Virus record (IMG/VR): IMGVR_UViG_3300030451_004287
Span: 64,001-128,000 of that record
DNA from: a virus
Strand: one strand, 5' to 3'
Length of the DNA stretch: 64,000 nt
Position 1 is the stretch's first letter, and every line of letters starts with the position of its first letter. Of the stretch, positions 891 to 63,999 are shown one piece after another. Below the pieces are notes generated by a model. The model saw only the letters and a list, made by a program, of their open reading frames with translations, had not been told where the DNA came from and did not search any database. The translations under genes were made by a program, and so were the position numbers.

Positions 891-1121
891 ATGGCGATTT
901 CAACTACAGATGTTTTGACCTCAGCAATTACTACGAGCGATGCTGTTAAGAATGGCACTATCGTTTTAGCTGTGTCACCAGTATTGGGAACTACTCAAGA
1001 TATTAATACTTATGTTGTAAGCACTCCCGGTCACACAGGAGTACAGACAACACTGACAAATAGACTTGATGAAGTAGCATACTATAACACAGCAAGCGGT
1101 ATTTCTGGTGGCGGTGCATAA
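891..1121 (+). CDS. small Ser/Thr-rich hypothetical protein (possible virion protein)
   Basis: 76 aa, 22 Ser+Thr, strong AGGAG RBS. Confidence 0.65.
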   Translation: MAISTTDVLTSAITTSDAVKNGTIVLAVSPVLGTTQDINTYVVSTPGHTGVQTTLTNRLDEVAYYNTASGISGGGA

Positions 1122-1462
1122 TGAAACCGGGTTACAAAACAACAGAGTTTTGGTTTACCCTAGCAACTTTTATCGTTAGTGGATTATTTTTGTTGGGGCT
1201 TTTTAGAGATGAGTCTCAAAAAGATGAATTAATTATTGTAATCAGTCACGCTATTGAGAGTATATTCTTAATAGGCGGACAGGTTATGATATTTTTAAGG
1301 TATATGCAAGGACGCAGAGAAGAAAAATTAATTAGAGTTTATAACGAGGTGGAACACGATGACAGCAGCATTTATTCAACAGAACGACCCGAACCAGACA
1401 ACAAAAGAATTGATCCGGCAAGAAGTTCTAAAACTAATTACCGAAGTAAAAATCTCTCTTAA
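1121..1462 (+). CDS. holin-like two-TM membrane protein
   Basis: MKPGYKTTEFW start, two hydrophobic helices, charged C-terminal tail. Confidence 0.5.
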   Translation: MKPGYKTTEFWFTLATFIVSGLFLLGLFRDESQKDELIIVISHAIESIFLIGGQVMIFLRYMQGRREEKLIRVYNEVEHDDSSIYSTERPEPDNKRIDPARSSKTNYRSKNLS

Positions 1463-1850
1463 AGATGTAAAACGCTTTGCTATTTCTGAAGCATGGAAAG
1501 TTTTACAGTTAGTAGTAGCGGTTGTAATCCAAATCATTGAAAAGTTAGGCGAAAATTTAAGTGGGCCTGAGAAGAAAAAAGTCGCACTAGAAGTTATAGA
1601 AAACTTTTATGACACAGTATTAGGCTCGATTGATATTCCGGGCATTCCAAGTTTTCTCGAACCTATGTTTCATAATAGCGTAAAAAGTCTTATGATGATA
1701 TTTGTAGGAGCTAGTATAGATGCTATGGTAGCTACATTTAGAAATGTTGGAGTATTTAAATCAAAATACATAGAAGGTCAATCAACAGACAGCACTTTAG
1801 TTGATCAATTATTAAATGATATATCACAAATAGTAAAGGTGGAGACATGA
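1359..1850 (+). CDS. hypothetical helical protein
   Basis: 163 aa, GAGGTGG RBS, LSGPEKKKVAL segment. Confidence 0.65.
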   Translation: MTAAFIQQNDPNQTTKELIRQEVLKLITEVKISLKDVKRFAISEAWKVLQLVVAVVIQIIEKLGENLSGPEKKKVALEVIENFYDTVLGSIDIPGIPSFLEPMFHNSVKSLMMIFVGASIDAMVATFRNVGVFKSKYIEGQSTDSTLVDQLLNDISQIVKVET

Positions 1851-2197
1851 ATTATTTAGAACAGTTTGCTAAAGAAAGTACAGCTTTCGATCTTGCTTTA
1901 TATGCTGGCGTAATAGGAATTTGTTTTGTATTATTTAAAGATAAACTTGCTCCGGTCACAAAATGGATAGGTGATGTAATAGCAAAATTAAAACCTAATT
2001 TAAAAACTCCTGATTTAGATTTTATTACTGTGGTAGAATCTAGAGATGAAGACACAGAATTATTTTTTGAACTTGTTAAAAGCTGGAAAAAGACTAGAGA
2101 TTTAGCAGAAGATTATGGTGCAACTAAAGCTGTTGATATAGCAGATCAAATGTTTCCTTACTTAGTTCCAAATGAAGAAGAGATAACTGATGAGTAG
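1847..2197 (+). CDS. hypothetical membrane protein
   Basis: N-terminal TM helix; ATGA overlap with the upstream gene. Confidence 0.65.
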   Translation: MNYLEQFAKESTAFDLALYAGVIGICFVLFKDKLAPVTKWIGDVIAKLKPNLKTPDLDFITVVESRDEDTELFFELVKSWKKTRDLAEDYGATKAVDIADQMFPYLVPNEEEITDE

Positions 2198-2693
2198 AGA
2201 TAAAATTATACTGTGCGTAGCTGGATTACTTTTATTTATTGGAGTATTTAAACCTAACTTAAATTGGTTACGGCCTTCTATACCAACACCAACTGTAGTC
2301 GATGTTGTAGAAATAGAAGCTCCAGAAGATAAAGAATTAAAAGCATTAGCAGAGAATGTTAGAGACTGTTTCTTAAATAGTTCTTCATCAACACGACAAA
2401 ATGATTCTAGACTGCTAGCTAACCTGTATAAAGATATTGCTATATTAATTAGTTTAAATAGTACTAATGAAGTTATAACTACAACAGAAGCTATTAGACA
2501 AGCAAATGTTTTGTGTGGTGCTATGTTGAACTTAGATATAAAAGGTAAGTATGAAGGATTATCTGAAGCAGCAGAGAAATTATTATCAGAAACTATAGGG
2601 GTTGATAATGTAAAGATGACAAAAGAATTAAGAGAAAAAAGTGTTAATTGTTTTAACGCTTTATCATGGGCTTGTCAAGAAGGAAGTAAATAA
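2190..2693 (+). CDS. hypothetical exported or membrane-anchored protein
   Basis: N-terminal hydrophobic helix, Pro/Thr linker, helical domain. Confidence 0.65.
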   Translation: MSRDKIILCVAGLLLFIGVFKPNLNWLRPSIPTPTVVDVVEIEAPEDKELKALAENVRDCFLNSSSSTRQNDSRLLANLYKDIAILISLNSTNEVITTTEAIRQANVLCGAMLNLDIKGKYEGLSEAAEKLLSETIGVDNVKMTKELREKSVNCFNALSWACQEGSK

Positions 2694-62161: not shown

Positions 62162-62173
62162 TAGTATTTCCTA

Positions 62174-63073
62174 CTACATATTTTTTAAAGCTTGTGACAA
62201 AACAGGTATTTTTGGTTCTATAGTTTTAGGATCTTCAAAATCTTCAATGTGTTGAGGTTTTGTTAAGTCTAAAATTAAATCCTCCTCCAAAAACTCTAAA
62301 CCATTAACAGTTTTAATGGCAGTATTATCCTGATCAATAATTTTAAGCGAATACTTTCTTTTTTGTAAACCAGATTCTAAATGTGATTTTAGAATATTCT
62401 TTTCCTTTACAATATTATACACTAAATCTGTAAGTATCATTTTATATTGTTTAACACCATCAATAACAAAAGGATTACCACTATCAATATTTATCCATAA
62501 TTTTAAATTTAATGGGTGCTTTAGTTTAGAAACAGGCTGAATTAAAATATTATCATTAGCATTTATAAAATTTTGAACCTCGTCATTATCACCATAGCCT
62601 ATTTCGATAGTAGGATTTGGAAAAGTATATTGTTTGTTTGTGCTAACAAATGTAGATTCAAAATTAAGAATATTACTAATATTACTATCATCACTAATTA
62701 ATCTAAATAAGTTTTGTTCATAAAACATCATCATTGAACCAACACTAGGAATTATAATAGACCCTACTGTAATTTGATTATCAACATCTGAAAGATCATA
62801 CGTTGTATTATCAATTTCTACAACGTAACTATGTATATCAGATATATCGTCTACAGAAGGACCGAAAAATATTTTTCCATCATCTACTCTACTAATAGTT
62901 TTATCATAGACTAATGAACTATCAGTCTTATGTTTTAGTTTAAATAACTGTTCAATTTCAACTTCAGGATTAAAATCTTTTAATATTAAACAATTATATG
63001 ATTTTTTACATTGTATCGGATCGTAAAAGACATTTCTTCTACAACTATCTGCTATATCATAATGAATATTCAT
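62174..63073 (-). CDS. hypothetical protein
   Basis: 299-aa ORF in the structural operon. Confidence 0.65.
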   Translation of the reverse strand: MNIHYDIADSCRRNVFYDPIQCKKSYNCLILKDFNPEVEIEQLFKLKHKTDSSLVYDKTISRVDDGKIFFGPSVDDISDIHSYVVEIDNTTYDLSDVDNQITVGSIIIPSVGSMMMFYEQNLFRLISDDSNISNILNFESTFVSTNKQYTFPNPTIEIGYGDNDEVQNFINANDNILIQPVSKLKHPLNLKLWINIDSGNPFVIDGVKQYKMILTDLVYNIVKEKNILKSHLESGLQKRKYSLKIIDQDNTAIKTVNGLEFLEEDLILDLTKPQHIEDFEDPKTIEPKIPVLSQALKNM

Positions 63074-63075
63074 AA

Positions 63076-63999
63076 TTAAAGAGAGTCCGTGTTATCCACT
63101 GCGAGAGGGAAAGGTCTTGTGTACTTTTTAGTTCTCCTATAACTTCCATTATTTCCAAGTGTCTCACTATCTGTAACAACTACCCAAGTCTGACAACCTA
63201 GATTAGTAGCTGTTGCATCCATCAAATCTTTAACATTAGCCTGATTTTCTAAACTGTGAGGATTTGCTCTAGGTTCAAATTGTGCAGTAATTGTTATATT
63301 ATAACTTTCCATATTTTTACATCTTACATTCTGTATAATAGGATATCCTCTACCCGGGGCAACATGTTCTACTAATTTATTAGCAGGTCTTTCATGATCA
63401 ATATTAACATCTGCCCAGTAAGCATTTGCAAGTTTAAATCTATTATTAGCATATTTTATATTAAAATCAATAGAATGATCATTATAATTTCTTGATAAAG
63501 TTTTACTAACTAATCTGTATTTATTTAATACCTGATCTAAACTATTAGCGTTGTGATTACCATCAGCATCTGCTTGTGAATGATTTAATTGTGGTACATT
63601 ATTAAAATCAAGTTCTCCAACACCTAAAAGACTATTCATAAAATCTTTATTTTTTACTTTATTAATAAGTGTTGCAGAAAATCGATTTTGAGTATTGAAC
63701 ATATTGTTTAAGGCATTTTCCGCATTTTGCATAGCTTGATCTTGAAAATCATTAAAACTATTTAAAATACCGTTATCTTGACCTGTAGTAACACTTACAA
63801 AATCATCATCAGGAAATCCTTTAATACTACCTTGAACAGTAAATGAGTTGTCTGCTGATTCTATATTAGTGTCATGATTAATATCATAAGTTACTAAAGC
63901 ATTACTAGCTAGGTTGCTATTAGCAAAGAAAACAATTTCTCCATCTATTCCAGCAGTATTATTTAATTCATCAAAACTGTAATTTAATTGTCTAAGTTT
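63076..63999 (-). CDS. 3' part of a putative virion structural protein (starts beyond the window)
   Basis: Frame stays open upstream of 63732 to the window edge (KLRQLNYSFDE...FTVQGSIKG...DQAMQ). Confidence 0.7.
   Translation of the reverse strand, partial: KLRQLNYSFDELNNTAGIDGEIVFFANSNLASNALVTYDINHDTNIESADNSFTVQGSIKGFPDDDFVSVTTGQDNGILNSFNDFQDQAMQNAENALNNMFNTQNRFSATLINKVKNKDFMNSLLGVGELDFNNVPQLNHSQADADGNHNANSLDQVLNKYRLVSKTLSRNYNDHSIDFNIKYANNRFKLANAYWADVNIDHERPANKLVEHVAPGRGYPIIQNVRCKNMESYNITITAQFEPRANPHSLENQANVKDLMDATATNLGCQTWVVVTDSETLGNNGSYRRTKKYTRPFPLAVDNTDSL

Follow-up and report, generated by a model that had tools for sequence, protein, structure and literature searches.

Why should a stretch of phage DNA whose proline codons are mostly CCA and CCT contain not a single copy of CCWGG, the word that such codons create whenever a glycine follows? 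The stretch in question, hereafter the window, is 64,000 nucleotides long (31.6% G+C) and corresponds to bases 64,001-128,000 of the single-contig IMG/VR record IMGVR_UViG_3300030451_004287 (159,659 bases), most of which is the genome of a phage that we call phage A. A first-pass annotation, made by reading the window, had claimed complete avoidance of the word, and counting bears this out. Both CCAGG and CCTGG occur 0 times on the two strands, whereas 35.8 +/- 6.1 copies of CCWGG are expected from dinucleotide-preserving shuffles, 41 from a maximal-order Markov model, and 46.7 +/- 3.6 from 300 synonymous codon shuffles in which protein sequences and codon usage were held constant and the count never fell below 36.

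The absence is written into codon choice. A simple greedy call yielded 70 open reading frames (ORFs) in the window, in which 85% of proline codons are CCA or CCT (CCA 292, CCT 346, CCC 55, CCG 59). Before a GGN glycine codon this preference vanishes: the 45 prolines in that position are coded CCC (27) or CCG (18) and never CCA or CCT (Fisher p = 2e-41), so that proline codon choice before GG differs from its use elsewhere. The annotation had counted 47 such junctions, 2 more than these simple ORF calls give; its statement that all of them are CCC or CCG stands, and the 7 example sites that it listed are as it described them, including a double junction in which CCG is used twice in succession (Table 1). 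Words that it had named as present in the window do occur there, namely CCGG (66), GATC (216), GGCC (29), GGWCC (43), and CCWWGG (22).

Extending the count beyond the window requires knowing what the record contains. The IMG/VR entry is classed as linear and rated 100% complete by CheckV. Its 6 CCWGG copies all lie within bases 149,211-159,260, and its sole copies of CAATTG, GGTACC, and TACGTA likewise fall past base 146,000. Bases 146,036-159,659 are a colinear, diverged copy of bases 1-18,247 (69-88% nucleotide identity), and this 13.6-kb tail encodes a second large terminase, 72% identical to the first. The first 50 bases of the record are found again, exactly, at 146,036-146,085, and a minus-strand gene left open at the record start (4583 to 1) continues in frame into 146,035 to 144,298 to give a fibre protein of 2,106 amino acids. 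Three independent contigs, a 109,004-bp Tara Oceans contig, a 99,926-bp JGI contig, and one Tara scaffold, run from record base 8,269 to base 1 and then directly from 146,035 to ~133,795 at 99.5-100% identity, and the fibre gene called independently on them is exactly 2,106 amino acids long. Because these contigs join base 1 to base 146,035, the tail belongs to another phage.

The tail also behaves as a separate molecule in other data. It assembles on its own in 4 other data sets, always breaking at the junction, and its contig depth in public runs varies independently of that of the remaining record: in run X1 the rest of the record has a depth of 20 and the 13.6-kb stretch ~11-13, and in run X6 the corresponding values are 10.9 and ~170-280. 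The Logan contigs at the junction are too fragmented within the repetitive fibre gene to bridge it from the main-genome side, and the depths therefore serve as supporting evidence only. The true genome of phage A is thus circular, or circularly permuted, with a length of 146,035 bp, and the last 13.6 kb of the record come from a related, co-occurring phage B, joined to it by an assembly error through a short shared stretch, of which ~120-200 bases round the junction are proven to be common to both phages. A clustering of sites at one end could also have marked a T5-like first-step-transfer end or a real terminal duplication; the circle-closing contigs, the second terminase, the stand-alone assembly, and the uncoupled depth refute both. 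The chimeric nature of the record matters for any reading of its last 13.6 kb, its "ends," or its two terminases. The deposited sequence shows the fibre gene as a truncated ORF of 1,527 amino acids plus a hybrid ORF of 1,205 amino acids; the full-length product resembles a tail fibre and has internal repeats and an Mtd_N domain. For the 444-amino-acid protein beside it, an exact look-up returned no record.

With the genome delimited in this way (record bases 1-146,035), CCWGG is found 0 times in phage A against a Markov expectation of 110.9 (P ~6e-49) and a codon-shuffle expectation of 91.5 +/- 5.1. Its P value is the lowest among 526 palindromic or centre-degenerate patterns and also among 6,692 other words. 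The phage B segment serves as an internal control and shows no avoidance, with 6 copies against 7.2 +/- 1.8 expected from codon shuffling. All 80 Pro-Gly junctions of phage A are coded CCS, compared with 16% CCS among proline codons overall (p = 3e-70), and the depletion is the same in genes of both strands.

The two remaining reading frames are equally empty. In the window, NCC|WGG is observed 0 times against 3.7 expected and NNC|CWG|G 0 times against 4.9; across phage A, codon shuffling predicts 67.2 sites in the Pro-Gly frame, 9.5 in NCC|WGG, and 14.8 in NNC|CWG|GNN, and each is observed 0 times. In phage A, no NCC codon is followed by TGG or AGG (0 of 707). The ~14.6 kb of non-coding DNA outside the ORF calls also lacks the word (~14 expected). 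Since both off-frames and non-coding DNA are free of CCWGG, the avoidance is not an effect of the Pro-Gly codon pair. The sister word CCSGG is enriched in phage A (106 against 60.8, an observed-to-expected ratio of 1.74), an enrichment that is a by-product of the conversion of CCW to CCS.

The window includes a glycosyltransferase-rich glycan island (Table 1), which the annotation had taken to share the avoidance and hence to be long resident. A shuffle restricted to its 27 ORFs predicts 8.4 +/- 2.1 copies of CCWGG (minimum 3 in 300 shuffles), and there are none; CAATTG (0 against 6.7 expected) and TACGTA (0 against 4.5) are missing from it as well. The shared purge is therefore confirmed. Long residence fits it without being proven, as the island may have been under the same pressure for long enough to be purged or may have arrived from a source that had already been purged.

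CCWGG is the most depleted word, but it is not the only one. The annotation had held the pressure to be specific to CCWGG and not CCNGG, which the excess of CCSGG supports; its implication that CCWGG stands alone does not hold, since at least 4 more words are fully purged from phage A. CAATTG is absent (27.9 expected by the Markov model, 53.8 by codon shuffle), as are GGTACC (20.8 and 13.0), TACGTA (12.5 and 22.7), and the non-palindromic CGTCTC (13.0 by the Markov model). The wider pattern GGYRCC is reduced to 3 copies against a Markov expectation of 41.4 (2 in coding sequence against 25.8 by codon shuffle), and GAATTC to 8 against 36.9 (6 in coding sequence against 32.7). We take CCWGG, CAATTG, GGTACC, TACGTA, CGTCTC, and GAATTC to be the sites of known Type II enzymes (REBASE).

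The history of the purge can be followed in relatives known from metagenomes. For the phage A terminase, no cultured relative above 25% identity was found; its metagenomic homologues number 4,268 at E <= 1e-20, and over 599 IMG/VR contigs have one. Tara Oceans and other marine metagenome assemblies are the source of the contigs that encode phage A's own terminase, and a query spanning the junction and tail (record 144,500-148,500) has near-identical matches in sequencing runs (marine, seawater, and estuary) of 14 studies from the years 2014-2025. A comparison with related phages and other words, as the annotation had proposed, sets phage A apart: in 80 IMG/VR loci whose terminases are 76-82% identical, CCWGG occurs 754 times against 1,246 expected (ratio 0.6), and none of these loci is free of it. 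Four near-complete relatives (137-187 kb) contain 75 of 136, 105 of 162, 103 of 145, and 130 of 181 expected copies, which gives ratios of 0.55-0.72, and in these 4 genomes CAATTG is at expectation. CGTCTC is likewise at expectation in relatives.

Complete loss is confined to phage A and its closest kin. Three loci with terminases 98% identical (L128, L129, and L130) have 0 copies of CCWGG against 10.5, 11.2, and 8.9 expected and also lack CAATTG, GGTACC, TACGTA, and CGTCTC. L123, at 90% terminase identity, is free of CCWGG (0 against 23.7) and keeps CAATTG (1 copy) and CGTCTC (2 copies), and L131 and L132, at 88%, are free of CCWGG (0 against 16.1 and 13.1) and keep both other words. These 6 loci and phage A make up the whole CCWGG-free clade, and within it the absence of CAATTG and CGTCTC is limited to phage A and its 98% relatives. 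The word is not purged from L125 and L126 (25 of 36 and 15 of 20 expected; both 90% terminase identity) or from L007 (16 of 24; 82%). In the terminase tree the CCWGG-free genomes fall in one clade, with the non-avoiding L125, whose region has 41% G+C, nested within it. At the 4 informative conserved Pro-Gly columns, phage A, L123, and L131 agree on C or G at the third proline position, whereas L125 and L007 have CCW. With only these 4 columns, the alignment hints at a single origin of the purge, in which case L125 would be a reversal, a recombinant, perhaps in its structural module, or misplaced.

Other words may have been lost earlier. GTCGAC is absent from phage A and from relatives G001, G002, G003, and G005 (5-10 expected in each), and GTGCAC has 0-1 copies in each of the same genomes; together, their scarcity suggests that avoidance had an earlier layer common to the whole family. 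In G003 and G005, GGTACC too is far below expectation (2 against 17 and 3 against 12, respectively).

The explanation that we favour, and consider quite probable, is restriction-site avoidance, in which Type II enzymes of the host are evaded by loss of their sites. A Type II enzyme common in the host population would cut unmethylated phage DNA bearing CCWGG, and the lineage would have been selected for loss of every copy. Removal would have proceeded mostly by a silent change of the central base, turning Pro-Gly CCW-GGN into CCS-GGN, while codons that would generate CCWGG in either of the remaining frames were left unused. Later and narrower layers could then have removed CAATTG, CGTCTC, GGTACC together with most of GGYRCC, and TACGTA, and thinned GAATTC, with successive host enzymes leaving successive layers of purged words. 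The depletion, its silent nature, its independence of frame and strand, and its distribution in the clade are observed; a host endonuclease as the selecting agent is what we infer from them. The set of purged words has the look of a fingerprint left by the host's restriction repertoire. A purge down to zero sites fits a putative single-site cutter and fits less well an EcoRII-like two-site enzyme, which would tolerate a few scattered sites.

Bolder variants of this explanation would replace classical restriction by a methylation-dependent defence or by a nuclease borne by the phage. In the first, a host CCWGG methyltransferase (5-methylcytosine or N4-methylcytosine) marks the phage DNA, and a methylation-dependent Type IV nuclease of the next host destroys it. 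The predicted depletion pattern would be identical, and CCWGG is methylated on the genomes of other marine viruses (Hiraoka et al. 2022, PMC8919816; Seong et al. 2022, PMC9516812), so that CCWGG methyltransferases are active in the habitat. The 4-5 unrelated words that were purged as well would, however, each need a methyltransferase and a Type IV reader of their own, whereas orthodox Type II enzymes account for all of the purged words directly, and we regard this alternative as improbable.

In the second variant, the phage itself would make a CCWGG nuclease aimed at host DNA, with no accompanying methyltransferase, and would avoid being cut by its own enzyme. No DNA methyltransferase of the C5, N4/N6, or Dam type was detected in the record by searches with PF00145, PF01555, and PF02086, as such a scheme would require, and phage A encodes nucleases of no assigned specificity, among them a PD-(D/E)XK protein (Table 1) and an ERCC4-type nuclease beside the terminase. 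The former matches RecB/Cas4-like PDDEXK_1 and sits in the replication module, however, and the ERCC4 gene is also carried by L125, which keeps CCWGG. Several different purged words would moreover require several nucleases, which makes this variant highly improbable. Searches of the record for EcoRII-C and MvaI/BcnI domains were empty, and carry no weight because the control genomes were silent too. The ERCC4-type gene (155 amino acids) overlaps the start of the large terminase family-wide, in the place expected of the small terminase.

The annotation had also offered loss through deamination of 5-methylcytosine. Here, Dcm-type methylation of the inner cytosine of CCWGG would be followed by mutational decay, and Dcm sites are indeed known mutation hot spots. 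The products of such decay, CTWGG and CCWAG, are not enriched and stand at expectation genome-wide (ratios 0.97 and 0.99). In frame 0, deamination predicts a replacement of Pro by Leu or of Gly by Ser or Arg, whereas the protein is conserved. The direction of change was read by placing the CCWGG sites of 5 relatives on phage A through protein-guided codon alignments. At 18 positions, all in the Pro-Gly frame, CCWGG is present in at least 2 relatives; phage A has CCSGG at 15 of them, a transversion of the central base, and multiple changes at the other 3, and none of the 18 carries CTWGG or CCWAG, the mark of a deamination-type change. A conserved Pro-Gly of the large terminase illustrates the substitution, being encoded with CCWGG in 70 of 81 relatives and with CCGGG in phage A. 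Where phages A and B align with confidence, CCAGG of phage B is matched in phage A by CCCGG (twice), CAATTG by CAATTA, GGTACC by TGTGCC, and GAATTC by GAATAC. A predominance of CCSGG, with no deamination product and the protein unchanged, points to selection against the word rather than decay of 5-methylcytosine, and deamination can hardly be the cause.

A cause unrelated to defence, whether translational or compositional (avoidance of the codon pair CCW-GGN, say, or an overall mutational bias), might be suspected from the fact that 67 of the 91 expected sites fall in the Pro-Gly frame, but it has next to no chance of being right, since the other two frames and non-coding DNA are just as empty, the effect is alike on both coding strands, and CCW-GGN is in free use among close relatives that have the same set of genes.

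Several observations weigh against restriction-site avoidance or limit how far it can be taken. The cognate CCWGG endonuclease is a postulated one, and the sole hint of a host is weak, the matches of a DUF1501 protein to Verrucomicrobiota at 39% identity. Because L125 lies inside the avoiding clade, the history of the trait needs a reversal, two origins, or recombination, unless the tree is in error. The mild CCWGG deficit that extends through the family (ratio ~0.6 in relatives) implies that the depletion is in part of earlier date or a matter of composition. The 3 empty Pfam searches would be compatible with hypermodified bases produced by enzymes that they do not recognise. Finally, sequence alone cannot separate classical from methylation-dependent restriction, so that the annotation's proposal of long-term selection by a host restriction or methylation-sensing system is upheld in its first part, as the best reading of a loss that is independent of frame and strand, silent in its W-to-S changes, and absent from most relatives, with a host restriction system as the most likely cause. 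Its further suggestion, that no modification by the phage protects the site, agrees with the lack of any methyltransferase of the 3 families, with the reservation that unrecognised modification enzymes, for example glycosyltransferases linked to the replisome (Table 1), may be present.

Phage A is an uncultured, probably lytic marine tailed phage with a double-stranded DNA genome of ~146 kb, 33% G+C, and its own DnaE replisome; a search for a tyrosine integrase was negative, which fits a lytic lifestyle. In 5 large relatives, no C5 methyltransferase was detected. Among the products of the window are a B12-type ribonucleotide reductase, DnaB, a primase, the PD-(D/E)XK nuclease, and several glycosyltransferases, and its DnaE is split into 2 proteins, both of which follow the CCWGG rule. 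Attempts to reach the host through gene content gave little. The record carries a transfer-messenger RNA (tmRNA; tag ADTSVLALAA) and a single tRNA-Leu (anticodon TAA), and neither the tag nor the tRNA gave a usable host signal. A search for psbA was negative, an 8-kb near-identity search against cultured phages returned no match, and the reductase, DnaE, and terminase had only distant matches in protein searches, which gave no host. The best bacterial-genome matches of the DUF1501-family gene are Verrucomicrobiota assemblies, at 35-39% identity. This similarity may hint that the host, or the donor of the gene, belongs to the Planctomycetota-Verrucomicrobiota group, and is too weak for a host call.

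Table 1. Positions of features named in the text (window coordinates, unless given as record coordinates)
Feature	Position	Strand	Remark
Whole window	1..64000		Free of CCWGG, CAATTG, GGTACC, TACGTA, and CGTCTC
Pro-Gly junction CCC-GGT, giving CCCGG	1026..1030	+	CCWGG would be usual there
Glycosyltransferase-rich glycan island	4672..27638	+	Purged like the rest; glycosyltransferase family 2 domain at 22190-23872
CCCGG at Pro-Gly	28844..28848	+	In the B12-dependent ribonucleotide reductase gene (28247-30445)
PD-(D/E)XK nuclease	38134-39120		Replication module
Split DnaE	39117-43454		618 amino acids (PHP and catalytic domains) and 530 amino acids (fingers, HhH, OB), with other ORFs between
LPGPG, encoded TTA CCG GGT CCG GGT	40236..40250	+	Two adjacent Pro-Gly junctions, in frame, in the N-terminal half of DnaE (39117-40973)
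Replisome-linked glycosyltransferases	43913-46602		
CCGGG in a gene of 1808 amino acids (50845-56271)	52172..52176	-	Rule holds on the other coding strand
CCCGGG in a gene of 1960 amino acids (56279-62161)	60390..60395	-	
ERCC4-type nuclease gene	record ~14,124-14,591		L119:3368-3835 in a relative
tmRNA	record 31,331-31,670		
tRNA-Leu	record 38,928-39,002		
DUF1501-family gene	record 51,743-53,032		
Phage B tail	record 146,036-159,659		Second terminase, portal and capsid module

Site avoidance of this kind is most pronounced among non-temperate double-stranded DNA phages and where the sites are those of orthodox Type II enzymes; about one-tenth of viral genomes show complete or near-complete elimination of a site (Rusinov et al. 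2018, BMC Genomics 19:885, PMC6286503). Phage A resembles the surveyed non-temperate phages in that short, mostly palindromic Type II words have been eliminated by silent changes and no methyltransferase of its own was found. It differs in that the enzyme behind the lost sites is a presumed one, and in a purge that is unusually clean (0 of ~100) and layered. Staphylococcus phage K lacks GATC and Bacillus phages lack GGCC, and these too are cases in which a host-specific restriction word is entirely gone from a genome of more than 100 kb; their hosts and enzymes are known, whereas in phage A 5-6 words are involved and the lineage is an uncultured marine one. The marine viruses that methylate CCWGG share with phage A both the habitat and the targeted word, and the methylation of CCWGG on other marine viral genomes marks it as a contested word in this habitat. 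Those viruses protect it, whereas phage A, in which no methyltransferase was detected, deletes it, and the analogy suggests that both may answer to the same selective agent.

Phage A is probably a very clean case of a well-known mechanism. A complete purge of several words would amount to a fingerprint of host restriction enzymes that is legible from sequence and offers host prediction for a widespread lineage none of whose relatives is in culture; marine methylomes and catalogues of restriction-modification genes provide a means of checking it. The layered pattern across the clade shows the pace of purging among phages that still share 88-98% identity in their terminases. We propose tentatively, as an idea more likely wrong than right, that the nested words are an ordered record of the restriction enzymes met by the lineage, with CCWGG purged clade-wide, CAATTG and CGTCTC on the youngest branch, where GGTACC/GGYRCC and TACGTA are lost too, and GTCGAC and GTGCAC family-wide. 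If this were true, matching the words to the methylomes and restriction-modification repertoires of marine bacterial genomes could name the host of an abundant, global, and uncultured marine family with more than 4,000 terminase homologues.

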